Positions 279 through 25,505 are shown, counted from the stretch's first letter. The stretch: 25,505 nt of DNA from Candidatus Enterousia merdequi (GCA_018065345.1 JAGHTM010000123.1:1-25505); one strand, 5' to 3'. Notes: a model not told the origin generated them from the sequence alone. Translations and numbers: made by a program.

Positions 279-284
279 GAGCCA
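279..284 (+). mobile_element. att-like junction core GAGCCA (left end of module A)
   Basis: Same hexamer followed by a hairpin at the same spacing as at 5609, 11054 and 25331; overlaps the integrase remnant. Confidence 0.6.
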
Positions 285-292
285 CATTTTAC

Positions 293-329
293 AACCCTTC
301 GCAAAAAGCAGTTTGTCGAAGGGTTTTTT
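293..329 (+). terminator. Rho-independent terminator-like hairpin
   Basis: aacccttcg (293-301) pairs with cgaagggtt (317-325), inner caaa/tttg pairing, followed by a T run. Confidence 0.65.
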
Positions 330-454
330 CAAGTAAAAACAAGCACTTTTGTCTGTTAGTACACCAGCCATACGACTACATGGCAAATATAGTATTTCTG
401 CCTTGAAAAATCCGCTTTTATACCTATATAAACATCAATAATAAAGGTATAAAA

Positions 455-2092
455 ATGGGAAAGACAGAAATTGCACCACAAATAGATTGGAACAAAGACA
501 AATTAGGCATCAAAGATAATGTCATTGGCTTCGCTAATATTTTAAAACAAGAAAAATACACACAGGACGGAACTTCAAAAGTGTATTCTATTTCTGCAGA
601 ATTTGGTATTGGTAAGACGTTTTTTTGTGAACATTTACAGGATGTTTTAAAACAGGACGGCATACCTGTATCAATGTTAAACATCTGGAAAATGGATTTT
701 TATGAAAACCCTCTTGTTCCGTTGCTTATCAACTTACAACAGACCTACACAATGTATTCGAATACACCTGAAGCTTTCCCTAATCCGAAAAAACTGTTAA
801 ATATGTTTAAATCTTTAGTGGCAGGTATTTCTGTTGAAGCTCATGCGCCACTGTTTGGCAAAATTGTTATTGATGGCGAAAAAATCATAAACTGTCATGA
901 GAATCTGAAAAACACAGAAGCAAAAAACAGCATTTACACCGAATACAAACAATTCGAAACAGAATTAAACAATTTAAAATCTTTTCTGGGCGATTGGGCA
1001 AAAAGCATGAATAAGCCCATAGTCATTATAATCGATGAACTAGATCGATGCCGTCCGGATTATGCCGTTAAGACGTTGGAAATATTAAAGCATTTCTTTG
1101 ATATTAAAGGTTTTGTGTTTGTTCTTGCTATTGATGAAGAACAATTAAAAAACTCTGTAGAAACTTTATTTGGGACTAAAAACTTTGACGGTTATAAACG
1201 TAAATTTATCAATAACTCTTTCATTCTTCCTGCACCAAACAAAGTAAAATTTACTGATTTTTTATATGACAAATCTGGATTATCAAATGTTGTAAAACAA
1301 ATCGAATCCTGTGAAAAAGATTTGGTATTTAAGACGGTTCTAAAAGATATGGAATTACGATATGTTAGCAATGATCCGGCTCTCCAAAAGGAGCGAGATT
1401 ATAATAACAGTCAAACTTCTGAGCAAATTATTAAACATTATTTTGCAGCTTATAGTATATGGTTTAAATTCTCTTTACGTCAAATGGAACAAATTTTTGA
1501 TAGATTGGTTTTATTCTCAAAATATATTTTGAATTGCGATGAATTGTATTCGCCAGATTTAGCAGTATTTTTAATATGTTTACATGAATTCGATTTGGCA
1601 ATATATAACAAATTGCGTTCTTCTTCCAGCAAAGTTTATGGTCAACACGGTGGATTATTAAAGCATATTTATAGCACCAACAAAACAGAAGCCTCGCTTG
1701 CACGAGTTATTTATAAAGATGACTCAGACACAATGTTTGACACTCTAGATCGTAATCTAATTCCAAAAGTTCCTGAAATTCTTGGTTTTTCAGCGATCGG
1801 TTCCTTTAATCAACAACATACCGTTATCATTCACGATAACGTAGATCGTTTCTTTGTTGCTGAAGAGTCGCAACAACATCCACTGACTTGGATTGTTGAA
1901 ATACAGGATCATGAGACAGGGAAACGGTCAATGGCGCAAAATAATGGCAGAGTAGCTGTTATAACCAATTCTAAACGTGATGCCGCTTGGAAAGAACCAC
2001 CTGCCGATGTAGACACTGCAACACAATTTGATTTAGAGCAATTCCGCAAAGATTATTTTGATAAAACGGATTTCATTTTGAATTTTAAATAA
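455..2092 (+). CDS. KAP-family P-loop NTPase with long C-terminal extension
   Basis: Walker A variant SAEFGIGKT, then MLNIWKMDF and Walker B IVIIIDELDRCRPDYAVKTLEILKHFF, plus YKRKFIN; these motifs are typical of KAP NTPases. Confidence 0.85.
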   Translation: MGKTEIAPQIDWNKDKLGIKDNVIGFANILKQEKYTQDGTSKVYSISAEFGIGKTFFCEHLQDVLKQDGIPVSMLNIWKMDFYENPLVPLLINLQQTYTMYSNTPEAFPNPKKLLNMFKSLVAGISVEAHAPLFGKIVIDGEKIINCHENLKNTEAKNSIYTEYKQFETELNNLKSFLGDWAKSMNKPIVIIIDELDRCRPDYAVKTLEILKHFFDIKGFVFVLAIDEEQLKNSVETLFGTKNFDGYKRKFINNSFILPAPNKVKFTDFLYDKSGLSNVVKQIESCEKDLVFKTVLKDMELRYVSNDPALQKERDYNNSQTSEQIIKHYFAAYSIWFKFSLRQMEQIFDRLVLFSKYILNCDELYSPDLAVFLICLHEFDLAIYNKLRSSSSKVYGQHGGLLKHIYSTNKTEASLARVIYKDDSDTMFDTLDRNLIPKVPEILGFSAIGSFNQQHTVIIHDNVDRFFVAEESQQHPLTWIVEIQDHETGKRSMAQNNGRVAVITNSKRDAAWKEPPADVDTATQFDLEQFRKDYFDKTDFILNFK

Positions 2093-2120
2093 CGACATCG
2101 TATTTAAAATCGCTATTCTT

Positions 2121-2171
2121 TGATTTCAATTATGATTTCAATATTGATTTCATCATTGATTTCAGTAATGA
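2121..2171. repeat. Four tandem 12-bp units with invariant TGATTTCA core
   Basis: tgatttcaatta / tgatttcaatat / tgatttcatcat / tgatttcagtaa starting at 2121, 2133, 2145 and 2157. Confidence 0.85.
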
Positions 2172-2181
2172 GTCGAACGTA

Positions 2182-2295
2182 TTTTTTTAAGCAAAACCAA
2201 GCCTTTCGCTCATTTATTACCGAGTTTGATAATATGGTTTTCAAAAATTCGCGTTTTTTTGAGTTTATCGAACAATTCATGATTGTTGCCGCCTG
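2182..2295 (-). pseudogene. Second serine-recombinase-like C-terminal remnant (not in the ORF track)
   Basis: Minus-strand translation QAATIMNCSINSKKREFLKTILSNSVINERKAWFCLKK aligns by eye with VLTDKSACFYLKK (186-386) and DKKRVLIKMLTSNFFIDGCNVQISLKK (25244-25505). Confidence 0.5.
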
Positions 2296-2412
2296 TCCAG
2301 GTGCTGATGTTTTGTTTAGTAAGAATACTGTAAAAACACATGAAAAAAGTCTTTACCAAGAATACTTTCATAGTATATAATGAAGTTATCATAATTATCA
2401 TAGGAAGGGATT

Positions 2413-4398
2413 ATGCTGAATAAAGATAAACTTAATGCTTTGCTAACAGAATACAAATCTGACTTTTCTGCCCAATGGGAAAAAGAAAACTACAAAAGAA
2501 TTGCGATCAAGCACTTTCAAGACAATTGGGATATAGACGCCAAGAACTTTCACGAAATGTTGAAGAATAGTCTTAAAAAAGCTGGAAATTTACTGTTAAG
2601 TGCAAATTTCTTTCCAGGTGGCATGATTCAAAATTTTGCAGAAAGATATCCTGAACAAGTACGCAAAATGTTTCGGAATTTATTCGATGAAACAAAAGAT
2701 TTGGCAGAACGCATTGAAAACTTTAAACAAGCTGCTGATAAATTATTAGAAAAATATCAACAGAAAGAAAATGCCGCTAATCATTATCAAACAGAAAATT
2801 CCATCAGCACATATTTATGGTTACATAATCCCGATAAATATTATATTTATAAGTTCAGCGAATACAAAAGCGTTGTTAATGCATTGGATGCGGAATACAA
2901 GGTATTATGGGGAAAATCAATAGACAATTTAATTTCTTGCTTTGCGTTGTATGATGAAGTCTGCAAAATAATCGAGCAAGATAACGAACTTGCTGATTTG
3001 GTTCGTACACATACAGACAATCAACACTTTAAGGACAAAAACTTCAAGGTAACAACAGTTGATTTTTGTTTCTTTGTTTCACGTAAAAAAGACACAGGAG
3101 AAGTTATGGCAAAAACAAACAATGTCACAAGCCAAACGAACCACTGGTGGTTAACAGCCAATCCAAGCATCTGGAAATTCTCTGATATTATTATAGGTTC
3201 TGAACAATATTATACTTTGCTTAATTCTAACGGCAACCCAAGAAAGATTCCTCAGAATTTCCGAGATGCAAAAGCGGACGACTTGATTATAGGATACGAA
3301 GCTTCCCCTAAAAAAATGATTACCGCATTGTGTAAGGTAACTAAAAAAGATAAAGAAAAGCTGTATTTCACAAAAATTAAAGATTTTGTAAATCCTGTTG
3401 ATTATCAAACCCTAAAAGCAATACCAGAACTGGCGGATTTAGAATTCTTCAAAAACCCAAACGGTAGTCTGTTTAAAGTAACAGAAATGGAATACAATGC
3501 CATCATGGACTTAATTGATGATGGTAATGCCCAACCAAATCTGTTAAACAGCGTAACATCTTTTGATAAATATACGAAAAAAGAGTTTTTGAGAGATGTG
3601 TTTATGTCATCAGAAAAATATGACGAATTGGTTGATCTATTAAAAACCAAGAAGAATATTATTTTACAGGGCGCACCGGGTGTTGGTAAAACATATGCCG
3701 CTGAACGCCTTGCGTATTCCATAATGGGCAGCAAGGATAAATCGCGTGTCAAATTCATTCAGTTCCACCAAAACTATTCATATGAAGATTTTGTTATAGG
3801 ATATAAACCAACAAATACAGGATTTGAACTGAAACGAGGCGTATTTTATGAATTCTGCATGAAAGCGGCGAACGACCCATCACAAGATTATTTCTTTATA
3901 ATCGATGAAATCAATCGCGGAAACATGAGCAAAATCTTCGGTGAATTGCTTATGATGATAGAATCTGACTATAGAAACAAACCTGTACAATTGGCATACA
4001 CAAAGGATTCTTTTATTGTGCCAGAAAACCTACATATCATCGGCATGATGAATACTGCAGACCGTAGCTTAGCCATGATAGATTACGCTTTGCGTCGCAG
4101 ATTTAGTTTTGTAAATATGGAGCCAGGGTTTAACACTGCAGGATTTAAGAAATATCTTGAACGAAACCCTAAATTTAAGGCATTAACAGCAAAGATTGTT
4201 GAATTAAACGCAAAAATTACAGCAGACGCATCTTTAGGGAAAGGTTTTTGTATCGGGCACAGCTATTTGTGCAAACCTGATTCTGATATAAAATCGATCA
4301 TAAAATACGATTTGATACCATTGATTGAAGAATATTGGTTTGACAATGAAACAACTCAGAAACAACACATAACCTTTCTGGAAGAGCTTGTTAAATGA
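2413..4398 (+). CDS. mcrB: McrB-family GTPase subunit of a type IV restriction system (unknown N-terminal domain + EVE-like domain + AAA+ GTPase)
   Basis: GAPGVGKT Walker A, FIQFHQNYSYEDF, IIDEINRGN Walker B, McrB signature MNTADRS, ALRRRF. The central segment HWWLTANPSIW...AKADDLIIGYEASPKK looks EVE-like. Confidence 0.92.
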   Translation: MLNKDKLNALLTEYKSDFSAQWEKENYKRIAIKHFQDNWDIDAKNFHEMLKNSLKKAGNLLLSANFFPGGMIQNFAERYPEQVRKMFRNLFDETKDLAERIENFKQAADKLLEKYQQKENAANHYQTENSISTYLWLHNPDKYYIYKFSEYKSVVNALDAEYKVLWGKSIDNLISCFALYDEVCKIIEQDNELADLVRTHTDNQHFKDKNFKVTTVDFCFFVSRKKDTGEVMAKTNNVTSQTNHWWLTANPSIWKFSDIIIGSEQYYTLLNSNGNPRKIPQNFRDAKADDLIIGYEASPKKMITALCKVTKKDKEKLYFTKIKDFVNPVDYQTLKAIPELADLEFFKNPNGSLFKVTEMEYNAIMDLIDDGNAQPNLLNSVTSFDKYTKKEFLRDVFMSSEKYDELVDLLKTKKNIILQGAPGVGKTYAAERLAYSIMGSKDKSRVKFIQFHQNYSYEDFVIGYKPTNTGFELKRGVFYEFCMKAANDPSQDYFFIIDEINRGNMSKIFGELLMMIESDYRNKPVQLAYTKDSFIVPENLHIIGMMNTADRSLAMIDYALRRRFSFVNMEPGFNTAGFKKYLERNPKFKALTAKIVELNAKITADASLGKGFCIGHSYLCKPDSDIKSIIKYDLIPLIEEYWFDNETTQKQHITFLEELVK

Positions 4399-5486
4399 TT
4401 ATCGACAAAGGTATCCGTATAAAAAATATTTACTATATGCTCAGCTATGCTTTTGAATTTATAAAGCATACTGGCTATTCAAATATGGATACCGAAGAAT
4501 TTGAGAACATTCACGATTTGTTTGCGGCTATATTAGCCCAAGGGATGGCTTATCAATTAAAAAAAGGGCTATACAAAGAATACGTACATAAAAGCGACAA
4601 TTTATCAACTGTACGTGGCAAAATAAACATTACAGAAACTATTCGCAACAAGATCCTGCAAAGACGCATTATAAATTGCGAGTTTGATGAATTGTCAGAA
4701 AATAATATTTACAATCAGATTATCAAATGTACAGCATCATTATTGCTTCGTCATGGTAATGTTGAAGCCAAGTATAAATCGCGTTTAAAGCAGAGTTTAT
4801 TGTTTTTTTCAAATGTTGATGATATTGATTTAAAAACCGTAAAATGGGGTGCAATAACCTTTCATAGAAACAATCAAAACTACAGAATATTAATAAATAT
4901 ATGCAATCTATTGGCACGAGGCCTATTACAAACAACCAACAATGGACACACTAAATTAGCTACTTTTATTGACGAACAAAGTATGTGCCGTTTGTACGAA
5001 AAATTTATATTAGAATATTACAAACAAGAACACAGCAATACAGTTAAATCAGAAGCGTTGCAAATTCCTTGGGTTTTAGATGATGATAATCAAAATCTGT
5101 TACCAATTATGCAAACAGACATTACACTAACTAGGAAAGGTAAAAATAGGCAAGACATACTGATTATCGATGCAAAATATTACCGAAATACGCTATCAAG
5201 CAACAATCACTCTGATAAATTAACACTGCATTCAGGCAATATGTATCAAATATTCACCTATGTAAAGAATAAAGATGCGGATTTGTTGCGTAAAAACATA
5301 CAGCACAGGGTTTCTGGAATGCTGCTGTACGCAAAAACAGAAGAACAAATCACACTTGATAATTCATATCAAATGAGTGGGAATAATATATGTGTAAAAA
5401 ACCTTGATCTAAACCAAGACTTTTCTGAAATACGAAAACAATTAGACCAAATCTTAACCGACTGTTTTGACACTTTAACATATTAA
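4395..5486 (+). CDS. mcrC: McrC-family restriction endonuclease subunit
   Basis: Overlaps the mcrB stop codon (ATGA). IKNIYYMLSYAF N-terminus, PD-(D/E)xK-type TDITL...IIDAKYY, NMYQIFTY and GMLLYAK. Confidence 0.92.
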   Translation: MIIDKGIRIKNIYYMLSYAFEFIKHTGYSNMDTEEFENIHDLFAAILAQGMAYQLKKGLYKEYVHKSDNLSTVRGKINITETIRNKILQRRIINCEFDELSENNIYNQIIKCTASLLLRHGNVEAKYKSRLKQSLLFFSNVDDIDLKTVKWGAITFHRNNQNYRILINICNLLARGLLQTTNNGHTKLATFIDEQSMCRLYEKFILEYYKQEHSNTVKSEALQIPWVLDDDNQNLLPIMQTDITLTRKGKNRQDILIIDAKYYRNTLSSNNHSDKLTLHSGNMYQIFTYVKNKDADLLRKNIQHRVSGMLLYAKTEEQITLDNSYQMSGNNICVKNLDLNQDFSEIRKQLDQILTDCFDTLTY

Positions 5487-5531
5487 CGTCAAACACTTTG
5501 CTTTACACCCTATGGCGCATTCGTGTAATCT

Positions 5532-5614
5532 TTTAGAAAGATTTCGCAAACTCTACTCAGGCTAGTAAATTCTTCTGGATTTTCTACCCGATACGTGCGA
5601 GTTATCTCGAGCCA
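5532..5614. repeat. 83-bp direct repeat, copy 1 (right end of module A; encodes an integrase tail on the minus strand)
   Basis: 76/83 identical, without gaps, to 25254-25336. Ends in CGAGCCA. Minus strand reads WLEITRTYRVENPEEFTSLSRVCEIFLK. Confidence 0.92.
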
Positions 5615-5622
5615 CAGTTAAC

Positions 5623-5650
5623 ACCGTTCCTAAAAGGAGCGGTTTTTATT
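5623..5650 (+). terminator. Rho-independent terminator-like hairpin
   Basis: accgttcc-taaaa-ggagcggt followed by ttttatt. Confidence 0.7.
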
Positions 5651-5662
5651 TATCACATCATA

Positions 5663-5690: not shown

Positions 5691-5714
5691 GTTATTTATA
5701 TCTAGGAGCAGCCT

Positions 5715-6989
5715 ATGTCCATATATGTTGCGGGCATTGATTTCGGAACTACTAATTCATCAGCAGCCATTTCCGATGGCAAAGTTGTGCAAATGATAGA
5801 TGTAGAAAAAGGTAAAGATACAATACCTACTGCTTTGTTTTTTCCTGATAAATCTAATCAAATACTCTATGGCCGAGAAGCCCAAACAAAATACACCAGC
5901 GAAGAAAATCCTGGCCGTTTTATGCGCAGTATGAAACGTATATTAGGAACGTCTTTAATGCAAGAAGGAACTGTTATCAATGGTAAATCTGTAAGCTTTG
6001 ATGATATCGTTGGTTATTTTATAAAACACATAAAACAAAAGATCGATAAAGCCGCCGGACAAAATGTAGAAAGCGTTGTTATGGGGCGACCTGTTCACTT
6101 TTGTGACGACGACCCAGAAGGTGACAAGCGCGCCGAACAAGAACTGAAAAAAATTGCCCTGGCTGCTGGATTTAAACATGTAGCATTTCAATACGAACCT
6201 ATTGCTGCAGCTTTTGCTCACGAACAAAATATAACATCTGATAAATTAGCTTTTGTGGTAGACATTGGTGGTGGAACTTCTGACTTTACTGTTATCAGAT
6301 TATCACCAAACAGAAAATTTAATTTTGATAGAACCTCTGATGTTTTAGCAAACACAGGCGTTCGCATAGGCGGTAATGATTTCGATAAAGATTTATCTAT
6401 AAAATCTTTTATGCCTTGCTTTGGTTTAGGAACAAAATATAAAACTTATAACAAAGATATTTATTTACCAACAGGACCTTTTATCAGCCTGTCAACTTGG
6501 AGTTCTGTTAATGAAGTTTATAATTACAAGACATTAAATATGGTAAAAGATTATGTTGTTTGGGGTTTAGAACCAGAAAAGACTCAACGCCTTTACGAAA
6601 TCATAGAAAATCGCTTGGGACATCAAAATCTGGATTATGTGGAAAATGCAAAAATTGCTTTATCAGAAATAGCAGAATACGATATTAAACTAGACTTTTT
6701 ATCAGATGCACCAACAATTCATATAAATCGTGAACTATTTGAAAAAGCTATTGAACAAAATGTTAAAAAAATCGAAAAATCAGTTCAAGAATGTTTGAAT
6801 AAGGCAAAAGTCAAAAACACTGATATAGAGTTGGTAATTTTAACTGGTGGTTCAACCGAAATTCCATATATTAACAACGCAATGCAATCATATTTTCCAA
6901 AAGCTAAAGTTTCTTCTGAAAATAAAATGGCTAGTGTAGGTTTAGGACTAGCATATGATGCCATGCGCCGTTTTTATAAAAAACCATAA
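5715..6989 (+). CDS. yegD: YegD-like Hsp70-family ATPase (no canonical peptide-binding domain)
   Basis: GIDFGTTNS, GRPVHF, FQYEPIAAA, VDIGGGTSDF, IGGNDFD and VILTGGST; 424 aa, shorter than DnaK. Confidence 0.85.
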   Translation: MSIYVAGIDFGTTNSSAAISDGKVVQMIDVEKGKDTIPTALFFPDKSNQILYGREAQTKYTSEENPGRFMRSMKRILGTSLMQEGTVINGKSVSFDDIVGYFIKHIKQKIDKAAGQNVESVVMGRPVHFCDDDPEGDKRAEQELKKIALAAGFKHVAFQYEPIAAAFAHEQNITSDKLAFVVDIGGGTSDFTVIRLSPNRKFNFDRTSDVLANTGVRIGGNDFDKDLSIKSFMPCFGLGTKYKTYNKDIYLPTGPFISLSTWSSVNEVYNYKTLNMVKDYVVWGLEPEKTQRLYEIIENRLGHQNLDYVENAKIALSEIAEYDIKLDFLSDAPTIHINRELFEKAIEQNVKKIEKSVQECLNKAKVKNTDIELVILTGGSTEIPYINNAMQSYFPKAKVSSENKMASVGLGLAYDAMRRFYKKP

Positions 6990-7012
6990 ATTGTAAGTTA
7001 TTATTTCAGACA

Positions 7013-7891
7013 TTATACATAGGAGTCTTCCATATGTCTGCATGCAATTAATTTCTTTAATCTTTTTATATTTTGTTCTCTAGAAACCCAACTTAATTCT
7101 GGATGTGCAAAACTCATTAAAAACATGCATATACAATAAAAGAATTGTCGTGATTTAAAACCATTATCCATCTTCTTTCCATATCCAATTTCCAAGAATT
7201 TTTGTGGTTCACCAAACATATATCTAAATTCATAAGCAGGGTCTGCATAATGAAAAGCACCAAAATCTATTACTCCTGTTATTTGATAATCTTTTGTTGA
7301 CACCATTATATTATTAAAATGCAAATCTGCATGACACGGCAACAAATCAATTGATTTTGCAGTTTGTTCAAAATTCAATAAACTATTATTAATAATTGAT
7401 ATTTCTTCTTTGGTTAACTGTTTTTGTAAACCAGGTGTAAACCATTTATAAAAATTATCTTTCTGATATTCAGCAGAACGTATTAATCTATTTTGTAACT
7501 TTGATACCTTAATAGAATTAATTTCTGCGTAAATCTTTCCGTATTCAATTAAAAAATTTTCACGTATTTTTTTAGGCAAATTTCTATATATTTCATACGA
7601 AAAAGGATTACCGTCAATTTTTTCTTCTATTATTATTTCACGACCATCTGATAACAATCCATGATTTATCATATTTGGTGTAATAAAATTTACTTTATTT
7701 TTAATATATTCCAAAACATCACTTTCAGAATTTTGATACTCATTTATACTGTTGCTTTTTGATACTTTTACTACATATTTATTATTGATATCCCAGGTTT
7801 TAGCAAATAAACCTTCACCCAAAAATTTAATATCCTTTATAGAAACATCAGAAATATTTTCTAATAAAAACAGATATATTTCATTTTCCAT
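7013..7891 (-). CDS. Aminoglycoside-phosphotransferase/choline-kinase-fold protein
   Basis: LGEGLFAK glycine loop, VVKV, Brenner motif CHADLHFNNIMV, GVIDFG and DPAYEF. Substrate cannot be inferred. Confidence 0.85.
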   Translation of the reverse strand: MENEIYLFLLENISDVSIKDIKFLGEGLFAKTWDINNKYVVKVSKSNSINEYQNSESDVLEYIKNKVNFITPNMINHGLLSDGREIIIEEKIDGNPFSYEIYRNLPKKIRENFLIEYGKIYAEINSIKVSKLQNRLIRSAEYQKDNFYKWFTPGLQKQLTKEEISIINNSLLNFEQTAKSIDLLPCHADLHFNNIMVSTKDYQITGVIDFGAFHYADPAYEFRYMFGEPQKFLEIGYGKKMDNGFKSRQFFYCICMFLMSFAHPELSWVSREQNIKRLKKLIACRHMEDSYV

Positions 7892-17986: not shown

Positions 17987-17995
17987 ACTAAAAAA

Positions 17996-18750: not shown

Positions 18751-18760
18751 GGACAATTCG

Positions 18761-18786
18761 CTGTTAATCCGTATGTCACTGGTTCG
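18761..18786 (+). mobile_element. Internal tRNA-Asn(GTT) fragment (anticodon loop to T-loop), att remnant
   Basis: CTGTTAA-TCCGT-ATGTC-ACTGG-TTCG matches the layout and, from memory, the sequence of bacterial tRNA-Asn. The 5' anticodon-stem strand and the 3' end are missing, so it is not a functional tRNA. Confidence 0.8.
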
Positions 18787-18893
18787 GTGCAGAAAAACTA
18801 ACCACACATAATGAAGCCTTGTTCAGCGATGCCGGAAGAATACCTGTTCTTATAAACACACCATATATTGAAGAATAAAAAAATGGAGATTTT

Positions 18894-19406
18894 TTAAATC
18901 CCCAATTTTTTCAGTTTTTTATTCCAATCTTTTTGTTTTTCTTCAAATTTCATAGAAAGAGCCGCACTACTTGATTTTAATATTTTATCTTCGTCAACTT
19001 CTGGCCAATTTGCATATTTAGGATTTTTCTTTGCTTTTATGTAGTAATTATACGCTTTCTTACCATTAAAAAGTATATTCTTGCCATTTAATTTAAAAAG
19101 GTCGTTATAAACCTCGTTCTTTATATGTTTATCAGCGCTCGTATTTTTACCATTATCGTCTCTGTCGCAATATTTTATTACATCCCACAAACCGATACCT
19201 TTGTCTTTTAATGCTTCAAAATCGCCAAATTTTATTCCTAAAAGTTCCCAAAATTTGTTTGTGGGGTTTGAATAATATTTATTGCACTTTAATGATTCTT
19301 CGCCTGGAAATGTTCCCAATATTACAACTTTTGCAGCATCAATATTAAACGGTTTTATTTTATGACGAGACAAAATTGTTTTTTTCAACAAGGTTTTTAT
19401 ATTCAT
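18894..19406 (-). CDS. Uracil-DNA-glycosylase superfamily protein (MUG/hypoxanthine-DNA glycosylase-like)
   Basis: VILGTFPGEESL, YYSNPTNKFW, IGLWDVI, ILFNGKKA and LKSSSAA. Confidence 0.82.
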   Translation of the reverse strand: MNIKTLLKKTILSRHKIKPFNIDAAKVVILGTFPGEESLKCNKYYSNPTNKFWELLGIKFGDFEALKDKGIGLWDVIKYCDRDDNGKNTSADKHIKNEVYNDLFKLNGKNILFNGKKAYNYYIKAKKNPKYANWPEVDEDKILKSSSAALSMKFEEKQKDWNKKLKKLGI

Positions 19407-19409
19407 ATT

Positions 19410-19520
19410 TTATGCCTTTATAACTTTCTGTATCACTTCTAGCATTTGCCGGTCACAAAAATCAATAAAATTCTTACTGACTTCATCACCGTTATGTATT
19501 CCAAGATTATCATAACACAT
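19410..19520 (-). CDS. Small ORF or gene remnant (36 aa, not in the ORF track)
   Basis: MCYDNLGIHNGDEVSKNFIDFCDRQMLEVIQKVIKA; stops 3 nt before the glycosylase ATG. Confidence 0.3.
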   Translation of the reverse strand: MCYDNLGIHNGDEVSKNFIDFCDRQMLEVIQKVIKA

Positions 19521-19560
19521 TTCTGAAACAAAAAACAACCGAATCTTATAGTTGACTTTA

Positions 19561-19911
19561 TTAAGATACAAAAATAACCTTTTCCATAAAATCCATTATA
19601 TCTATTTTTTGCTTCCAATAATCCATTAGCAAATCAAAATTTAGAATTATAAATTGTTTTATCTGTTGTATATCTGTGTCAGATATAATGATTTTACTGT
19701 TACACCCAAGTATTTTTGGAGTTTTAGATATAGATATAAAAATCATATTTTCAGATCTTATATCAGAATAATTGTTTTGAAAAGCAAGTTTTGGTTCGTT
19801 ATTCTTAGTTTTCCGTTCAATACCTATATCGTCAACCCACAGAAAGACCGCTAAGCCCGTAACATGTTTTGGAATTACAGTCATCCACATATCTTGCTCA
19901 TCTTGTGTCAT
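19561..19911 (-). CDS. Small hypothetical protein (116 aa)
   Basis: Probable start MTQDEQ at 19911, overlapping the end of the upstream gene. TGLAVFLWVD...PKL and NFDLLMDYW loosely recall DUF4160-like proteins (weak). Confidence 0.65.
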   Translation of the reverse strand: MTQDEQDMWMTVIPKHVTGLAVFLWVDDIGIERKTKNNEPKLAFQNNYSDIRSENMIFISISKTPKILGCNSKIIISDTDIQQIKQFIILNFDLLMDYWKQKIDIMDFMEKVIFVS

Positions 19912-20605
19912 ATTTCTTTTTCTTGTTTCCCAATTCAAAAACAAACCTGTCTATTTGTTTCATCGGCGGATAACCATGATTATATTTTTTTAAACTTGAT
20001 TGATATTGCTTATAAAATTTCCACCATTTAATAATTTCTTCTGCAGAAACGGTTTTTGAAAATTTTATTGTTTCACCATCAATGCAGGGTTTTAATTTAT
20101 TATTTAATTCGTCAACTCCCTGTTTGAAAAATCTGTCGTATGCAGGTGTTATACCAATAGTACCTAATATAATTTTCGTTACTAATGTATTAGTTAATGT
20201 TGAATCTGTCTTCAAATTTTTATTTTTAATGTACTCTGAATAATACTTTATATAAGCTTTGTTTAACTTTTTTATTAGGTCGTTAAAATATTTTTCAAAC
20301 CCTTCTTCGTTGTCAAGTCTTGGTTTCCACAATTTTGAACAGCATAAGGTTTTTATGGCATTTTTATGAATAGTATAATCATAATTTAACAAAAAAGAGG
20401 AACCTCTATACATACCCCAACTGGCTAAATAAAACCCCAAATGTAATTCGGCTAATTCCATTTTTTCTTTAGACCCTTCTATTTGGTCATGATTTTGTTG
20501 AAAAAAATCATAACAATGCTTCCAAGACAAATATCTTGTATTTGTCTTGTCTCTTTTTTTGCTATTTTTAATGGTTTTTTGTATCGCTTTTTGTATTTCT
20601 GTCAT
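19898..20605 (-). CDS. Conserved-looking hypothetical protein, possible HhH/OGG-like DNA glycosylase fold
   Basis: RYLSWKHCY, HLGFYLASWGMYRGSSFLL, LVTKIILGTIGITPAYD and YPPMKQID. The fold assignment is inference from the TK...PxYD spacing. Confidence 0.7.
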   Translation of the reverse strand: MTEIQKAIQKTIKNSKKRDKTNTRYLSWKHCYDFFQQNHDQIEGSKEKMELAELHLGFYLASWGMYRGSSFLLNYDYTIHKNAIKTLCCSKLWKPRLDNEEGFEKYFNDLIKKLNKAYIKYYSEYIKNKNLKTDSTLTNTLVTKIILGTIGITPAYDRFFKQGVDELNNKLKPCIDGETIKFSKTVSAEEIIKWWKFYKQYQSSLKKYNHGYPPMKQIDRFVFELGNKKKKYDTR

Positions 20606-20662
20606 ATTTTTCTTCTTTTATTCTGTTTCATATGTTATACCACTAACGTATTTTTTGATATC

Positions 20663-21709
20663 TTATCCACGCAGTTTGTCGGTTATGGTTACTAATTCTT
20701 CATCTGAAATATACGCAGTATGCATACGCACAGGCATACACCCCGCATCACTAAATAACATATCACCAAAAGGCAACAACTGTTCTGCACCTTTTTCATC
20801 TAAGATTGCGTTTGAATCTTTACCGGTCTGTGTTTGGAAAGATACACGCGTTGGACAGTTAGCTTTAATAATGTTAGTAATAACATCAGAAGAACATCTT
20901 TGGGTTGCTATTACAAGATGTATTCCTGTGGCCCGAGCCTTTTGGAGCAAATATTGAATATTAGATTCAACATCTTTTTTTGCAATAACCATAAGATCTG
21001 CTAATTCATCTATTGCAACAATAATATATGGCATATCGTTTTTATGTGTCTTTTCTTTATATTCTTTGATTGTTTTTACCTTATGTTGCTTTAAGATTTG
21101 ATACCTTTCTTCCATAGTCTGTACCATAGATTTTAAAATATTAATAGCTTCATAAGTATCATTTATAATTGGCATATATAAATGTTTTTCTTTTTCCCAT
21201 TTGTTTATTCCAGCAAATTCTACGCTTTTTGGATCTATTATTATAAATTGGCATTCTGACGGTTTTAATTTTTCAGACAATGATTTTAGCATAGATTTCA
21301 GCAAATTCGTTTTGCCAGACCCTGTTCTTCCACCTATCAATAAATGTGGAAATTTTTGCAAATCGCTAATCATTATATTACCCAAAGTATCTGTTCCAAG
21401 AACAACAGGTAATGTTGCCTTGGATGTTTGAAATTCTTTACTTTGCAGTAATTTATTAAGGGATATCGTTTGACCAACTTCTTTCGGAACCTCAAAAACA
21501 ACAGTTTGATTGTTATAATCAGGACGAACACGACCACTAACCAGTTGTGCCAATTTAGTCGCCTTATTCATATTGAAATTATCATCTGGTTTATAGATGA
21601 AGTTATTTACCTTTGGTCCCTCTTGAATATCTAATAAACTCCCCTTAAAAGCATTACCAATATTGTTATAAAAATTTACCACTAATTCTTGATCTTTTGT
21701 TAATGTCAT
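20663..21709 (-). CDS. Stand-alone FtsK/SpoIIIE-family ATPase motor domain
   Basis: PHLLIGGRTGSGKT, IIDPK, IVAIDELADLM, KARATGIHLVIATQR and GAEQLLPFGDMLF; no transmembrane N-terminus, no gamma domain. Confidence 0.88.
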   Translation of the reverse strand: MTLTKDQELVVNFYNNIGNAFKGSLLDIQEGPKVNNFIYKPDDNFNMNKATKLAQLVSGRVRPDYNNQTVVFEVPKEVGQTISLNKLLQSKEFQTSKATLPVVLGTDTLGNIMISDLQKFPHLLIGGRTGSGKTNLLKSMLKSLSEKLKPSECQFIIIDPKSVEFAGINKWEKEKHLYMPIINDTYEAINILKSMVQTMEERYQILKQHKVKTIKEYKEKTHKNDMPYIIVAIDELADLMVIAKKDVESNIQYLLQKARATGIHLVIATQRCSSDVITNIIKANCPTRVSFQTQTGKDSNAILDEKGAEQLLPFGDMLFSDAGCMPVRMHTAYISDEELVTITDKLRG

Positions 21710-21795
21710 TAGTCCGCTCCTTTATTGCTTAAATTTTGATATTTTCATCATAAATAATCCATTTTTAATATACTGTCATGATACATCAAACAAGA

Positions 21796-23874
21796 TTAAA
21801 AGTGAAATCCTATTTTTACTTTATGTTCACGACAATTTTTAACCTGTTGTTCCTGACGCAATCTGGATAACAATTCGGCTTTATCGGTAATATCCAGTAA
21901 ATCGGCTTGATTTTTTACCACCACAAAATCCCCAGGCGCAAGATTTACCAAATCAACAATTTCGTCTTTTGATACATCTTGGTTGAAAAAATCTTTAAAA
22001 GCGGCTATCACTTGATCTGGTTTTAAGAAATCATATTTAACTTTGAAAGAAAATCTACGCAGAGCCGCTTTATCTATATTAGCCATCAAATTAGTTGTAC
22101 AAACAAACGGATATTCAGCAGCTTCCATTTGGGTTAACATTTCATTAACACTGCTTACTTCCCAAGAATGTCCGGCATGAGTACGATCCATCAAAAAAAC
22201 ATCTGCTTCATCAAAAACTAACATAGCTTTTTTTGCATGTGCTTCCTGAAAAGCTTTTGCAATATTTTGTTCGGTTTCACCAACCCATTTACTGTTTATA
22301 TCGCTTGCACGTTTTTTTATTATTTTCATGCCCAATAAATCAGCCAAATATTCACAGAAAGCGGTTTTTCCTGTACCTGGTGCACCATAAAGACACACTG
22401 AAAAATTTTTCAAATTTTTATTTTTGATTTGATTTGCTAATTTTTCTAAGTCAATATCTGTATTCAACAATTTTGTATTAAACTTTACACCATTCGACTT
22501 TTTATTTCTTGATGGTTTACCTGTTATAGCCTGACTTAAATGTTCCAAAGTATAATCGACAAAATTAATATTGTTCACAATTTTTGCGTTTTTTACAGCG
22601 GTTTCTATCATAGATATTGGCACCTGATATTTATTTATCAACCTCTTGATATCTTCATCAGAACTTTTGAGTTCATACTTTTCAAATATACGTTTCCATG
22701 CATTAATTTTTGCATGTTCGTCTGGGTTAGAAACTTCTAACGCAATTGAAAATCTACGAACATACGCTTTATCCATATCTTCCAAATTATTTGTTATCCA
22801 TATCACTGGACGTTTATTGTTTTCCAATATACGATTTATATATAATTTACTGGGGCTATGTCTGCTAAACGGGTCAAAAGAAAACACATCTTCTGCTTCG
22901 TCAAACAAAACGACTGATTTTTCTTCATTTTTTAATACGGTTTGCACCTGCGCAAGATTTGAAAATCTATCATCTTTTTCTTGTTGTTTTTCAGATGTGG
23001 TATACAAATTTAACCCCACACAATCACAAATAGTTTTCGCCATTTCGGTTTTTCCTGTTCCTGGCGAACCATACAAAAGGATGTTTATTCCTTTACTATT
23101 TGAATTAATCCCATTGGTTAAAATTTCGGATACTTTATCAAAATCATCTGCTATATAATCAAAATTTTCACGGTTTAGAGTTGTTGATAAAGGACTACCA
23201 ACCAAAACATCACGCACTTCTTTACAACTTTTAAAGTTCATTGTTAATAAACCTAAAAATGTTTTATTAAATTCATTATCACCATAACGATTTTTTAATA
23301 TGCCAGATTCAAACAATGGTCCATTTTGAGCAAATGCTTCCCTGATTTCTTGTTCTGGCATTTTGCATACAGTAGCTATAAAATCCGAATTATTTTCATT
23401 AAAAAAATAATTAAGGTCTATATCGTCGTTATAACAACCTAACAAATTACGTAATATCAGGTTATTTTTCATACAAACTAAAAATTGCAATAATCGTCTG
23501 CAATTATCTGGTAAATCAAATGTTTCACATACCATTGTAAAATTTTTATCAAAATCAGGTTTTGTTATATCGACTTTATAATCATCCTTTCTGGCATCAA
23601 CCATTTTTGATACATGTTGGTATAAATTGTCGTCTGACAATAAACTGTTACGCCATAATTTACCATTCAATAAATATCTGACAAACTCTATTTTATCGTC
23701 ATCAGGGGCCAATTTATCACCATTATTTAATACATCTCGCAAACAAAATCCGAATAAATCAGAAGAGTATTTGGAAATTTTATGAATAAAAAAATCCGTA
23801 TCTTCTGGTTCATATTCGCTGTTTACTATATTTCTTAAATAACACAAAATAATTTGCCTATCTTTTATGTTCAT
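21796..23874 (-). CDS. Tandem (double-ring) AAA+ ATPase, SpoVK/Cdc48-like
   Basis: Two modules: YGSPGTGKT...LFDEAE...ITNN...RRF and YGAPGTGKT...SKWVGETEQN...VFDEAD...AALRRF; ends KIGFHF. Confidence 0.9.
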   Translation of the reverse strand: MNIKDRQIILCYLRNIVNSEYEPEDTDFFIHKISKYSSDLFGFCLRDVLNNGDKLAPDDDKIEFVRYLLNGKLWRNSLLSDDNLYQHVSKMVDARKDDYKVDITKPDFDKNFTMVCETFDLPDNCRRLLQFLVCMKNNLILRNLLGCYNDDIDLNYFFNENNSDFIATVCKMPEQEIREAFAQNGPLFESGILKNRYGDNEFNKTFLGLLTMNFKSCKEVRDVLVGSPLSTTLNRENFDYIADDFDKVSEILTNGINSNSKGINILLYGSPGTGKTEMAKTICDCVGLNLYTTSEKQQEKDDRFSNLAQVQTVLKNEEKSVVLFDEAEDVFSFDPFSRHSPSKLYINRILENNKRPVIWITNNLEDMDKAYVRRFSIALEVSNPDEHAKINAWKRIFEKYELKSSDEDIKRLINKYQVPISMIETAVKNAKIVNNINFVDYTLEHLSQAITGKPSRNKKSNGVKFNTKLLNTDIDLEKLANQIKNKNLKNFSVCLYGAPGTGKTAFCEYLADLLGMKIIKKRASDINSKWVGETEQNIAKAFQEAHAKKAMLVFDEADVFLMDRTHAGHSWEVSSVNEMLTQMEAAEYPFVCTTNLMANIDKAALRRFSFKVKYDFLKPDQVIAAFKDFFNQDVSKDEIVDLVNLAPGDFVVVKNQADLLDITDKAELLSRLRQEQQVKNCREHKVKIGFHF

Positions 23875-23919
23875 GGGTAGCCTCTTTTGCTTGGTTCAAA
23901 TTTAATATAACCAACCCTT

Positions 23920-23936
23920 TGGACAAAAACGGTCCA
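23920..23936. promoter_or_regulatory. Candidate WYL-regulator operator
   Basis: TGGAC-N7-GTCCA inverted repeat in the 123-bp divergent intergenic region between the AAA and WYL genes. Confidence 0.45.
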
Positions 23937-23997
23937 TTTTTCTTTACTTATAAACAAATATTTGATATCATACTGGCATATAAACCAGAGAGGCAAA

Positions 23998-25050
23998 ATG
24001 TCTGAATTACGCAACAATTATAAAAAAACAGATATAAAATTAAATCTTATTAACGAATTACGTGCCAATTATATGACCCGCGAAGATATCCGGAATTTTT
24101 TATCGTCTGAATATAAGCGTTTGGGTAAAACACCTGCTGATTGTAAAAATATTGCAGAATATAAAGTAAGTGAAAGAACTGTTAAACGCACAATAGATTC
24201 TATCAAAGATTCATATGGCGACCAACTGGAAGAAGAAGCCGGCGCATATAAATTAGATTTACACGATTTTCCAGATACAATCAACGACACTGAAATTCGA
24301 GCTTTGGAGTTTGCTATCCAAAAAACAGCAAATAATTTAAACGAGCACAAATTACTGGAAAACCTGAAAGCCAAACTAACCACCAGATTATACCGTAAAA
24401 TTGAACACACAGAACCACGGAAAGCGGCTAGCAAGATAAACGACATAGATCAAATGATAAACGCTGATTTTGCTTTTGTTGGTCCGCACCCAGACATAAA
24501 ATTTGATTCAAACATTAAATCCCTGATAGATTCTGCAATCAGCAAACAACATGAAATACGCTTTAAGTATCACGATCGCGAACATAATGTATGTCCTTTG
24601 GGAATTATGTATGGCCCAAATAATGTTTATCTTGTTGCTTATATTTGTAAAAATGGCAAGGTCTGCACCGACCCTAGACATTATATTGTATCTAATATTA
24701 CAGATGTGATTGATACAGGTAATCGGTTTAACAAAGATAATACTTTTTCATTAAAAACATATGCCAAAGATATGTTTGGAATTTATAACGATGGTGCTGT
24801 ATATGATGTGGAATGGTTAATCAAAAATCCAGAAATTATAAAATTAGTAAAAAAATATCAATTCCATCCAACACAAAAATTCATAAATAATCCAAACGGT
24901 ACATTGACAATAAAAATGCGTACTGGCGGTTTGCGCGCAATCAGTACATATTTGACCCAATGGTGTGGCGATATCATACCAGTTAGACCAAAAGAATTAT
25001 TGGGTGAATACAAAAATCTATTAAAAAAATGTCTGGATTCTATTAAATAA
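23998..25050 (+). CDS. WYL-domain transcriptional regulator (HTH-WYL-WCX, BrxR/CapW-like)
   Basis: HTH segment YKVSERTVKRTIDSI, WYL segment EIRFKY...VCPLGI...VYLVAY...RHYIVSNI, C-terminal FHPTQK...LTIK. Start moved to the ATG at 23998, which has GAGG upstream. Confidence 0.88.
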   Translation: MSELRNNYKKTDIKLNLINELRANYMTREDIRNFLSSEYKRLGKTPADCKNIAEYKVSERTVKRTIDSIKDSYGDQLEEEAGAYKLDLHDFPDTINDTEIRALEFAIQKTANNLNEHKLLENLKAKLTTRLYRKIEHTEPRKAASKINDIDQMINADFAFVGPHPDIKFDSNIKSLIDSAISKQHEIRFKYHDREHNVCPLGIMYGPNNVYLVAYICKNGKVCTDPRHYIVSNITDVIDTGNRFNKDNTFSLKTYAKDMFGIYNDGAVYDVEWLIKNPEIIKLVKKYQFHPTQKFINNPNGTLTIKMRTGGLRAISTYLTQWCGDIIPVRPKELLGEYKNLLKKCLDSIK

Positions 25051-25243
25051 AAAACAAAAATATGGATTACAACTTAGCAGTAATTACACACAATGAATTC
25101 TGTACAAAATACAACAGGTTAAAAAATCTGCTATAAAAAATACTCTTGAAAAAACAACATTACTATCTCAGTTTTTTAGTTTTATTTTACTTTTTCCCTA
25201 ACATATTACCGAAACCCGTTCTATTTTTGTTATGTTGATGCTT

Positions 25244-25505
25244 TTACATATTCTTTAGAAAGATTTCGCATACTCTACCCAAACTAGTAAATTCTTCTGG
25301 ATTTTCTGCCCGATATGAGCGAGTTATCTCGAGCCAAGTTGGACATCCCTTGAAATTCACTATAGTTTCAAGGGATTTTTTTAGAGAAATCTGCACATTA
25401 CAGCCATCTATAAAAAAGTTAGAGGTCAGCATTTTTATTAGTACCCTTTTTTTATCAAAACCTCTAACTTTTAGCCTGTAATGGCTGTTTTCTGCCACTT
25501 TTATT
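25244..25505 (-). CDS. C-terminus of a large serine recombinase-like integrase (runs off the window edge)
   Basis: Frame open to the window end. KKRVLIKMLTSNFFIDGCNVQISLKKSLE...GCPTWL matches the C-terminal pattern of tRNA-targeting serine recombinases. The catalytic domain is not visible. Confidence 0.6.
   Translation of the reverse strand, partial: IKVAENSHYRLKVRGFDKKRVLIKMLTSNFFIDGCNVQISLKKSLETIVNFKGCPTWLEITRSYRAENPEEFTSLGRVCEIFLKNM
25254..25336. repeat. 83-bp direct repeat, copy 2 (element right end, att-like junction)
   Basis: 76/83 identical to 5532-5614; ends in CGAGCCA. Confidence 0.92.
25345..25382 (+). terminator. Rho-independent terminator-like hairpin
   Basis: atcccttgaaa-ttcactatag-tttcaagggat (11-bp stem) followed by a T run; encoded antisense inside the integrase end. 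Confidence 0.75.

Follow-up and report, generated by a model that had tools for sequence, protein, structure and literature searches.

Introduction

Defence islands of the E. coli type lie at integration hot spots. Tandem accretion of islands and CIMEs (cis-mobilizable elements) at the 3' ends of tRNA genes is known from the ICESt1/ICESt3 family and from IME/ICE tandems at tRNA-Lys (PMC5704250), and Islander catalogues tandem islands, with only 4 arrays of three or more (PMC4383910). Integrase genes that span attP are cited in PMC4383910 and PMC8371274 for myxophage Mx8 (IntP/IntX) and for SSV-type archaeal elements, both of which use tyrosine recombinases and tRNA targets. As of 2015, no serine integrase was known to use a tRNA gene as its target (PMC4383910).

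Here we analysed a contig of Candidatus Enterousia merdequi (GCA_018065345.1 JAGHTM010000123.1:1-25505; the whole stretch of 25,505 nucleotides is called the window). It is best read as at least six phage-defence packets stacked at one tRNA-Asn end in a small-genome gut alphaproteobacterium. As in CIME tandems, there are successive site-specific insertions, lost integrases with att scars kept, tRNA fragments at the borders, and anticodon-loop, T-loop and 3'-end crossover sublocations. Unlike CIME tandems, the locus has at least six units in one stack, two unrelated recombinase families at one tRNA end and a cargo of almost only defence genes, with conjugation or mobilisation genes not seen.

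Results

Junction sites and features of the window

The hexamer GAGCCA occurs seven times in the window versus 4.7 expected, and seven or more copies were found in 19 of 100 shuffles, so that the hexamer alone is not enriched. Three copies lie within genes. The other four, on the plus strand at 279, 5609, 11054 and 25331 (sites A, B, C and E), are intergenic, and each is followed after 8, 8, 7 and 8 nt, respectively, by a hairpin and T run, as a sequence-only reading of this DNA had described. The hairpin stems (293-325, 5623-5643, 11067-11090 and 25345-25376) have free energies of -12.5 to -16.9 kcal/mol and z-scores of -2.9 to -5.1 against shuffles, and a terminator scan also picked two of the four. 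For the cores at 279, 5609 and 25331, the homologous sites in relatives are tRNA-end junctions.

Two 3' pieces of tRNA-Asn lie in the same orientation, both on the plus strand. Positions 11044-11059 correspond to the last 16 nt of the tRNA (nt 61-76) with one mismatch, and 18761-18786, already taken for a tRNA-Asn fragment, matches nt 32-57 of the genus tRNA-Asn(GTT) at 25 of 26 positions. In addition, a direct repeat of 83 nt (5532-5614 and 25254-25336) is 92% identical.

None of the window's ORFs gave a Pfam match to Phage_integrase, Resolvase or Recombinase, in agreement with the earlier statement that no intact integrase is present. ARAGORN detected neither a tRNA in the window nor a tRNA-Asn among the 151 contigs of this genome's assembly (85% complete); because the tRNA is absent from both contig and assembly, the anchoring of the array to tRNA-Asn rests on relatives. 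Judged by the Islander definition of a tRNA-linked array, the window has same-orientation 3' tRNA fragments at island ends, has no intact tRNA/tmRNA at either of its own ends, and holds only C-terminal stumps of large serine recombinases (LSRs) where each island should have its own integrase. Its units are flanked by att sites and lack a recombinase, as CIMEs do. The features are as follows.

1-284, minus strand: right (P) arm of a neighbouring, off-contig serine-recombinase element (blocks in relatives)
189-284, minus strand: alternative recombinase tail of 32 codons, beginning Trp-Leu, stop codon at 186-188 (ORF and tail homology)
279-284, plus strand: core A, GAGCCA, antisense to Trp-Leu codons, with the tail at its left and stump A at its right (relatives' breakpoints)
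285-365, minus strand: LSR 3' stump A, 27 codons; its plus strand is the hairpin and T run (tblastn, DNA identity, fold)
455-2092, plus strand: KAP-family P-loop NTPase, PADLOC candidate system PDC-S20 (Pfam PF07693, E 1e-32; PADLOC, E 8e-68)
2160-2307, minus strand: second serine-recombinase 3' stump, about 46 codons, without core or tail (tblastn E 1e-14, 67% identity)
2413-5486, plus strand: McrBC-type restriction pair, EVE-AAA_5 McrB and McrC (Pfam)
5532-5614, minus strand: orphan recombinase tail (E-type) with an in-frame stop before it; attR-side arm of an LSR element (83-nt repeat)
5609-5651, plus strand: core B (GAGCCA) and non-coding terminator 5623-5643 (fold, terminator scan)
5715-10900, both strands: module B cargo, separately distributed cassettes (Pfam, blocks in relatives)
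5715-6989, plus strand: Hsp70/actin-like ATPase (Pfam)
7013-9305, minus strand: APH-like kinase, GreA-like protein and CYTH protein (Pfam)
9670-10900, plus strand: two unknown ORFs of module B
10943-11059, plus strand: arm and decayed tRNA-Asn 3' end, with a diverged T-arm upstream of 11044-11059, ending in core C
11060-11697, plus strand: left end of a P4-like tyrosine-integrase island family (blocks in relatives, repeats)
11695-18430, minus strand: module C cargo, AbiL pair (RloB and AAA_21), type III R-M (Res, Mod) and a conserved 144-aa ORF (Pfam)
18493-18786, plus strand: right arm of the module C island, a TACAC repeat followed by tRNA-Asn nt 32-57 (18761-18786), 3' side clipped
18787-25057: module E cargo, composite (Pfam, PADLOC)
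18894-19406: UDG-family gene of module E
20663-21709: FtsK/HerA-like ATPase of module E
21796-23874: tandem-AAA ATPase of module E
23962-25050: divergent WYL regulator of module E
25244-25336, minus strand: recombinase tail (E-type), in frame with stump E; attR-side arm of the module E element
25331-25336: core E (relatives' breakpoints)
25337-25505, minus strand: serine-recombinase 3' stump E, 56 codons, running off the contig; its plus strand is the hairpin and T run (tblastn E 3e-5)

Module E also has two unknown ORFs.

Breakpoints in relatives coincide with the junctions

The comparison with relatives, which covered about 256 Candidatus Enterousia-like gut MAGs of this genus, had been named beforehand as the check, and their breakpoints fall on the predicted junctions: homology blocks begin or stop exactly at 279, 5532/5616-5651, 11044/11059, 18785-6 and 25330-8. 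At three of these points, which coincide exactly with sites A, C and E, a complete tRNA-Asn(GTT) is present on the plus strand in relatives. At core A, seven HSPs begin exactly at 279; tRNA-Asn lies to the left of this position in three relatives (G164, G155 and G014), and in a contig from public run X3 the 3' end of tRNA-Asn adjoins position 279. HSPs stop at 5616-5619 or 5651 around core B, and the unit 5532-5651 recurs in three genomes (G274, G144 and G141). At core C, G062 has a 97% identical block that stops precisely at 11059 and continues there into another partner, an LSR-type stump; block 11044-11134 comes after a full tRNA-Asn in G121 and others. Four relatives (G258, G226, G104 and G205) have blocks that stop at 18777-18786, and new blocks begin at 18785/6 in G202 (99%), G216 and G190. 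HSPs of four relatives end at 25336-25338. Breakpoints are present at all five junctions of the earlier division into modules A, B, C and E. Of these modules, A, B and E are each built from smaller units, and at least one more junction, at about 2160, had been missed.

The tRNA-Asn end is occupied in many ways across the genus. The gene was present in all 120 genus genomes searched, and dozens of genomes have same-strand 3' partial copies 2.6-24 kb away. Across 30 loci, the sequence right after CCA falls into many unrelated classes (about a dozen, by eye), each with its own terminator. Crossovers in the anticodon region are recognisable by direct repeats of tRNA nt 23/26/30/31/32-76 and the others by the CCA-end core, so the different crossover sublocations that had been proposed are real. 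Occupancy ranges from tRNA-Asn with stump E alone (G122, G158), through tRNA-Asn with an intact LSR of the stump A type (G164, G155), to arrays of tRNA, island, partial tRNA, LSR or stump, and E-type cargo (G241, G014, G190, G202). Sister arrays in G190, G202 and G159 have the same unit order as the window.

LSR genes overlap the tRNA end

GAGCCA read antisense is a pair of Trp-Leu codons near the end of LSR genes. Order-wide, a convergent tRNA overlaps the LSR gene 3' end at 29 of 30 LSR loci; in 29/29, CCA of the tRNA corresponds to an in-frame TGG, and the ORF continues for 30-120 nt inside the tRNA gene (Gln, Asn, Tyr/Gly, Pro, Glu or Met). A strong hairpin and T run is encoded by the KKPFD region at about 20 of 28 LSR loci; the KKPFD-coding stretch of the LSR is the tRNA terminator on the opposite strand. 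This revises what had been read as copies of a tRNA end with its terminator. The layout holds, but its generic nature does not, the CCA-end sites being serine-recombinase att cores; at sites A and E the hairpin and T run are there, and they are really the recombinase's own C-terminal coding sequence.

Full-domain LSRs are found in relatives, for example in G013 (L006:14263-15633), as proteins of about 500-550 aa with Resolvase, Recombinase and zinc-ribbon domains. The window holds three 3' stumps (27, about 46 and 56 codons) and two orphan tails, and none of these domains. Stump A matches the C-terminus of the G013 recombinase (tblastn E 2e-10), and its DNA shares 95% identity with the 3' end of an intact LSR gene linked to tRNA-Asn in G164. 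The second stump, preceded by four 12-nt tandem repeats at 2123-2172 and found as blocks 2172-2300 in G159 and G013, is a separate stump because it overlaps stump A in recombinase residues 74-91. Stump E is 97-98% identical to the sequence directly after the full tRNA-Asn in G158 and G122, where there is no recombinase body, and probably flanked tRNA-Asn as resident sequence before growth of the stack. The peptide of tail 189-284 shares 67-78% identity with the tail on the attR side of the element in G226, and window segments 42-348 and 194-364 occur as one block in five relatives (G159, G063, G183, G226 and G197). Three of the seven differences between the 83-nt repeat copies are synonymous in the minus frame. 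The LSR units have the stump at the left and the tail at the right, as in G226 and G164.

At 279-284 and 25331-25336 the Trp-Leu junction is kept, joined to alternative tails. Such tail-core-stump sites may be hybrid junctions of neighbouring elements; an unrecombined attP has the same form. In relatives, inverted repeats of the recombinase 3' end (131 nt, 1547-1555 nt apart) bracket the LSR gene, with 100% complementarity in G273 (tRNA-Gln) and 95% in G226 (tRNA-Asn); the window has no such bracketing repeats. The single LSR of this assembly, on contig C143, has the full set of domains and is linked to tRNA-Gln and specific for it.

As in Mx8 and SSV, integration into the tRNA alters or splits the integrase coding sequence and moves its C-terminal part to the other element end. 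Here, in contrast, a large serine recombinase crosses over at the CCA end and exchanges no more than the last ~13-30 codons, and its coding sequence doubles as tRNA terminator. With the phage and ICE LSRs (phiC31, Bxb1, A118, TP901-1, SPbeta SprA and TndX) the relatives' enzymes share domain makeup and very short att identity; the targets of those LSRs are protein-coding or intergenic and their attP lies outside the gene, whereas the window holds C-terminal stumps only.

Module C derives from a tyrosine-integrase island

Module C is derived from a P4-like island of the tyrosine-integrase type and lacks the integrase. Its flanks are the arms and tRNA repeats found in a family whose tyrosine integrases, of 402 aa with Arm_DNA-bind_3, were found in four relatives (G127, G019, G116 and G179) within islands that have the module C-type direct repeat. 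The left end has a terminator (11067-11090) and TACAC arm repeats (11148-11264), and the TACAC repeat of the right arm includes a 19-mer identical to 11195-11213. Block 11405-11677 is present in more than 50 relatives, and 11415-16934 is 96-97% identical in G208. PADLOC assigned the cargo to AbiLi/AbiLii and REase_III/MTase_III. Three relatives (G067, G004 and G152) have integrase-less restriction-modification islands with the same repeats as the tyrosine-integrase islands.

The family shares with P4-like islands the Arm_DNA-bind_3 integrases, arm repeats, a 45-nt tRNA 3' direct repeat and defence cargo. The window copy differs in lacking an integrase, in the clipping of both tRNA repeats and in a broken small conserved ORF: this 69-aa ORF (about 11488-11697) is frameshifted near 11607 and, by alignment, intact in six relatives. 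No cognate tyrosine integrase was found in this assembly.

Cargo is also exchanged at other borders

Many cassette borders (2300-2342, 5434, 5651, 5714, 6975-88, 7013, 9506, 21733 and 25057) are unrelated to GAGCCA. The KAP NTPase is a gene-sized block in many relatives. The McrBC block is 75% identical in three relatives (2342-5434) and about 98% identical in bovine metagenome contigs (2300-5584). Blocks 5714-6988 and 7013-9506 are separately present in more than 25 relatives, in other contexts, and module E occurs in relatives as separate blocks 18785-19444 and 21733-25057; its cargo is located behind an LSR stump in G190, G159 and G202. Because many homology breakpoints lie at gene borders without an att scar, site-specific insertion does not explain all the mosaicism.

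Discussion

The window is, with good probability, the distal 25 kb of a composite island that grew by repeated insertion at the tRNA-Asn(GTT) 3' end and then decayed. Two recombinase systems, LSRs and P4-like tyrosine integrases, would have supplied the stack and both would later have been lost. The LSR attP would lie within the last ~30 codons of its own gene, and crossover would take place within the 11 bp of the shared core CGAGCCA(AGTT), the tRNA acceptor end plus CCA. After insertion, the LSR gene would read antisense into the tRNA, with CCA becoming the Trp codon TGG; the other strand of the Lys-Lys-Pro-Phe-Asp coding stretch would give the hairpin and U run that terminate the tRNA, and the native tail would be displaced to the far end of the element (attR). 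For the tyrosine integrases, with their TACAC arm repeats, the crossover would lie in the anticodon region and give a second copy of tRNA nt 31/32-76.

Each newcomer would land beside the tRNA and shift older units rightward. From the newest at the left, we infer the arm of the off-contig LSR element, then stump A with the KAP NTPase, followed by the second stump with McrBC and its tail, the module B cassettes closed by the decayed tRNA end, island C of the tyrosine type (AbiL, type III R-M), unit E of the LSR type with its tail and, as the oldest, the resident stump E. Later, recombinase genes would have been lost and some scars clipped by deletions (the core is absent at about 2160 and the tRNA piece is truncated at 18786), and cargo cassettes would also have been swapped by recombination unrelated to att sites.

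The gene-border breakpoints without att-like sequence, together with the many unrelated contexts of the Hsp70-like gene and the AAA and WYL pair, would suit an ordinary mosaic defence island built by homologous or illegitimate recombination, on which the tRNA pieces, tails and stumps are incidental scars. We consider this unlikely, since all five predicted junctions are matched exactly by several independent block ends, relatives have a full tRNA-Asn or a partial copy at the junctions, and seven att-type scars in one orientation within 25 kb are not incidental. It is harder still to credit that islands of different strains were joined at shared att repeats during assembly. This MAG has 151 contigs and both contig ends lie in repeated recombinase-related sequence, but long internal repeats are limited to the 83-nt pair, which at 92% identity is no exact overlap, no more than 6-16 nt are shared at the remaining junctions, and the order C to E and stump, E-cargo, tail is repeated in the independent assemblies G190, G202 and G159; we rate a chimera as extremely improbable.

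The stack had also been called integron-like, and this part of the earlier proposal is not supported. Like integrons and CALINs (clusters of attC sites lacking the integron integrase), it is ordered, with the newest unit at the insertion point. Integrons are defined by IntI, attI and Pc with single-ORF, promoterless, one-orientation cassettes carrying attC; the window has no tyrosine recombinase and no IntI, attI or attC, its hairpins are terminators or LSR coding sequence that differ in sequence, and its units have 1-7 genes on both strands with their own promoters. A still-active platform, whose integrase-less units keep full att sites and are moved by recombinases in trans, would be in keeping with the anatomy of a complete attP at 279 and 25331, with the cognate LSRs and tyrosine integrases in the genus and with the tRNA end, similar 8-nt spacer and terminator that each unit rebuilds. 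Besides the lack of integron parts and the multi-gene units in both orientations, the truncated scars (those at 18786 and about 2160, a T-arm decayed at 11032-11043 and a frameshift in the small ORF of island C) speak against it, as do the tRNA-Gln specificity of the assembly's one LSR, the missing cognate tyrosine integrase and the lack of circle junctions in the contigs of public runs (assembler contigs only). We regard present activity as distinctly improbable, and the stack is presumably immobile today. The proposal of a tandem stack of site-specifically inserted, integrase-less, mostly defence units tied to a tRNA-Asn 3' end is supported by the relatives, and the most fitting description of the locus is tandem accretion and decay of the CIME kind, as opposed to an integron.

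As a speculative and rather doubtful extension, the tRNA-Asn end may be a self-renewing landing pad for the two recombinase families, in which a stump serves as the right half of the next attB and junctions are still attP-like, so that packets could be moved by an LSR in trans. If true, each element would bring its own terminator, which for LSR elements would be the KKPFD-coding stump, and the landing pad would function as a serine-recombinase analogue of the integron.

GAGCCA sites read as recombinase codons on the minus strand

We asked what the GAGCCA hexamers of the window represent. Intergenic copies lie on the + strand at 279, 5609, 11054 and 25331 (cores A, B, C and E), with a stable hairpin and T run 8, 8, 7 and 8 nt further on, respectively. 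The sequence-only reading had described these as four repeats of a tRNA end plus terminator, and folding confirmed the layout (-12.5 to -16.9 kcal/mol, z-scores -2.9 to -5.1). Its view that the window holds no intact integrase was borne out, in that none of the ORFs there encodes an integrase domain, as was the fragment at 18761, a piece of tRNA-Asn(GTT) in which 18761-18786 matches nt 32-57. The last 16 nt of tRNA-Asn are matched by 11044-11059 with one change. Enrichment of GAGCCA was dropped as evidence because the hexamer alone is not enriched (7 observed in the window versus 4.7 expected); support comes from context and from relatives.

On the minus strand each GAGCCA becomes TGG CTC, or Trp-Leu, and at cores A and E the sequence to its right, including the 'terminator', codes for the conserved C-terminus of a large serine recombinase (LSR). 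In the relative G013, the corresponding frame is part of a protein that has Resolvase, Recombinase and zinc-ribbon domains. GAGCCA also closes both copies of an 83-nt direct repeat (5532-5614 and 25254-25336, 92% identical), in which three of the seven differences are silent in the minus-strand reading frame. This repeat is a displaced native LSR tail, the tail being the last ~30 codons beyond the core.

Serine recombinase genes run into tRNA ends

The LSR from the same genome as the window (contig C143, antisense into tRNA-Gln) was used as a query against 328 genomes of the order, and relatives were found in 123. Close relatives of the recombinase gene come from Candidatus Enterousia sp. or Alphaproteobacteria bacterium, in rumen, horse, chicken and human gut samples. 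Of the 30 best loci, 29 have a convergent tRNA (Gln, Asn, Tyr/Gly, Pro, Glu or Met) overlapping the 3' end of the LSR gene. The encoded CCA is an in-frame TGG in 29/29 loci, and the ORF runs on for 30-120 nt into the tRNA before its stop (29/29). A few codons ahead of the CCA-derived Trp lies a conserved motif, Ser-Leu-Lys-Lys-Pro-Phe-Asp, whose codons form the hairpin 3' arm and T run on the tRNA strand; a strong terminator is made from LSR coding sequence at ~20 of 28 loci.

The in-frame TGG, the overrun into the tRNA and the terminators built from KKPFD codons argue for elements that insert at the extreme end of a tRNA gene through an attP inside their own recombinase gene. Insertion exchanges the last ~30 codons of the enzyme for tRNA-antisense codons, and the LSR coding sequence provides the tRNA with its new terminator. 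When the exact crossover dinucleotide was sought, the site was narrowed only to an 11-bp core common to the attP-like and attB-like sites. According to a 2015 survey, no serine integrase was known to use a tRNA gene as its target, and Mx8 and SSV, which have integrases extending across attP, are named there as tyrosine integrases (PMC4383910). Our literature searches on serine integrases at tRNA genes or tRNA ends found no description.

In the genomes G273 and G226, inverted repeats of 131 nt flank the LSR gene. These repeats are the gene's own 3' end (loci L016:1554-1684 / 3240-3370 and L152:18029-18159 / 19707-19837; 100% and 95% complementary). Among the six closest tRNA-Gln LSR loci, five lie no more than ~500 nt from the end of their contig; in the sixth, C143, the contig break falls inside the 5' end of the gene; such breaks would fit an invertible or repeated segment. 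In G000, contig C130 (reverse complement 1215-1676) carries a tRNA-Gln(CTG)-like gene, uncalled by ARAGORN, and then three tandem ~203-nt units that each open with the tRNA's last 15 nt and a terminator, resembling a miniature accretion array.

LSR remnants in the window

The window holds three LSR stumps, or 3' remnants of the gene, together with tails of two kinds.

LSR stumps and tails in the window
285-365, minus strand: stump A, 27 codons
~2160-2307, minus strand: stump 2, ~46 codons, without a core
25337-25505, minus strand: stump E, 56 codons, running off the contig
Tails: two E-type tails and one differing tail at 189-284

Insertion of the KAP gene into a single recombinase gene was rejected because stumps A and 2 overlap at recombinase residues 74-91 and must be two stumps. 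An apparent joint of 348 to 2224 in the public run X1, with 17 replaced letters, was merely a homologous intact LSR gene. An intact helper recombinase just past 25505 is doubtful, as the closest sequences, in G122, G158 and G011, are stumps without a catalytic domain.

Sites A and E read tail-core-stump, which is also the layout of an unrecombined attP. We infer that they are hybrid junctions, with the attR arm of a newer unit beside the attL stump of an older one; the right end of the G226 element bears the same tail, which fits this hybrid-junction reading.

Several smaller features accompany these sites. Four copies of a 12-nt tandem repeat at 2123-2172, between the KAP gene and stump 2, occupy the spot where a core and tail would be expected. 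In the arm left of core A, a G-rich run of TATGGGG-like repeats (85-165) is 77% conserved in G159:C15. In G226 and G202, the arm with the alternative tail also carries a short tRNA-Asn piece (nt 31-49), ~75 nt past the tail end and ~170 nt from the core (L152, from G226:C4, oriented 2135-2153 and 11081-11097; L159, from G202:C9, 7834-7851), which would be an older tRNA scar carried within an LSR attachment arm.

tRNA-Asn is a hot spot that also receives tyrosine-integrase islands

The window is contig C67 in full; its source assembly is a MAG of 737 kb in 151 contigs, 85% complete, in a genus with genomes of 0.6-1.3 Mb. ARAGORN found no tRNA in the window and no tRNA-Asn in the assembly, and none of the other contigs overlaps the window ends; contig C146 weakly matches the tRNA-Asn flank of G122, and no tRNA was found on it. 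tRNA-Asn is present in 120/120 genus genomes searched. Same-strand partial copies (from nt 23, 26, 30, 31 or 32 to 76) lie 2.6-24 kb downstream in dozens of genus genomes. Right after the CCA, 30 loci show many unrelated sequence classes (about a dozen, judged by eye), each with its own hairpin and T run behind a similar 7-10-nt spacer.

Some islands are small, lie between the full tRNA and a repeat of 45-47 nt, and have restriction-modification, PIN or HEPN genes but no integrase (G067, G004, G152); larger ones with the same repeat encode a P4-like tyrosine integrase of 402 aa that has an arm-binding domain (G127, G019, G116, G179). Module C of the window is a member of this family. In many relatives the tRNA is followed by the left end of the module (11044-11134 and 11405-11677). 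TACAC repeats that include an identical 19-mer occur at both ends of module C, whose two tRNA repeats are clipped.

The conserved block 11415-11674 was considered as a non-coding RNA; it has no Rfam match, and alignment reveals a 69-aa ORF. This conserved ORF of 69-73 aa (11488-11697) marks the left end of tyrosine-type tRNA-Asn islands in more than 50 genus genomes. The window copy is frameshifted by a 1-nt deletion near 11607, and intact copies lie at L165:13510-13719(-), L166:626-835(+) and L163:9227-9436(-). The product matches no Pfam family and could be a regulator or excision factor. Many genus genomes share a 144-aa ORF (17996-18430 in the window) at 50-78% conservation, again with no family match; in G190 and the window, unlike in G152, it adjoins the right arm of a tyrosine-type island on the inner side, and it may be element backbone rather than cargo.

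Synteny supports growth of the stack at the tRNA

Both halves of the window were searched by BLAST against 256 genus genomes, and block ends were compared with the predicted junctions. This was the synteny check that the sequence-only reading had proposed, and block ends did fall at its junctions.

Block ends in relatives at the predicted junctions
279: seven HSPs begin here; the left neighbour is tRNA-Asn in G164, G155 and G014
5532 and 5616-5619 or 5651: block starts at 5532, ends at 5616-5619 or 5651
11044 and 11059: at least six HSPs begin at 11044; one 97% block stops at 11059
18777-18786 and 18785/6: ends at 18777-18786; new starts at 18785/6, one 99% identical in G202
25330 and 25336-8: block starts at 25330, ends at 25336-8

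The 97% block ending at 11059 runs on into a different partner in G062. In one contig from public run X3, position 279 is joined straight to the tRNA-Asn 3' end. In G122 and G158, a sequence 97-98% identical to 25330-25505 comes immediately after the full tRNA-Asn and lacks a recombinase body beyond it; this resembles an unoccupied right end of the stack. G190 has the order tRNA-Asn, tyrosine-type island, partial tRNA, stump A and E-type cargo, and the arrays of G202 and G159 are similar. Taken together, the block ends, the X3 joint, the G122/G158 state and the order in G190, G202 and G159 support a stack built up at the tRNA, in which the older units lie farther right.

Cargo and limits of the accretion model

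The recognised defence genes are a KAP NTPase (PADLOC candidate system PDC-S20), McrBC, AbiL and type III restriction-modification; the remaining cassettes are defence candidates only. Many block ends fall at gene borders without an att scar (2300-2342, 5434, 5714, 6975-88, 7013, 9506, 21733 and 25057), and thus modules A, B and E are composites. Other routes also move cassettes such as an Hsp70-like gene, a kinase/GreA-like/CYTH trio and an AAA+WYL pair. Together with part of the neighbouring tail, the McrBC cassette (2300-5584) is ~98% identical in bovine metagenome contigs, at a depth far above that of its flanks, which indicates that the cassette circulates widely by itself. No circle junctions were seen, the public runs holding parts of the window only as assembler contigs.

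Tandem accretion at tRNA ends and the decay of units to integrase-less CIMEs are well documented (PMC5704250), and Islander lists tandem islands and three crossover sublocations (PMC4383910). Accretion at tRNA-Asn, as first proposed for the window, holds in outline; the mechanism differs, with LSR attP cores and KKPFD-codon terminators, as do the unit borders. The array is not an integron and the label 'integron-like' is unsupported, as is mobilisation of the units in trans.

The main interest of the stack is its serine-recombinase/tRNA design, which was unknown to the 2015 survey (PMC4383910) and is now seen in Alphaproteobacteria: an attachment site in the integrase's own gene, a tail swapped upon integration, and coding sequence that doubles as a tRNA terminator. 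The natural targets of such enzymes are short, well-defined and conserved, and the enzymes are therefore candidate tools for genome engineering. The scars are a readable record of insertion order, and the stack shows a very small gut genome (~0.9 Mb) concentrating a large, fast-changing defence arsenal at a single tRNA end.
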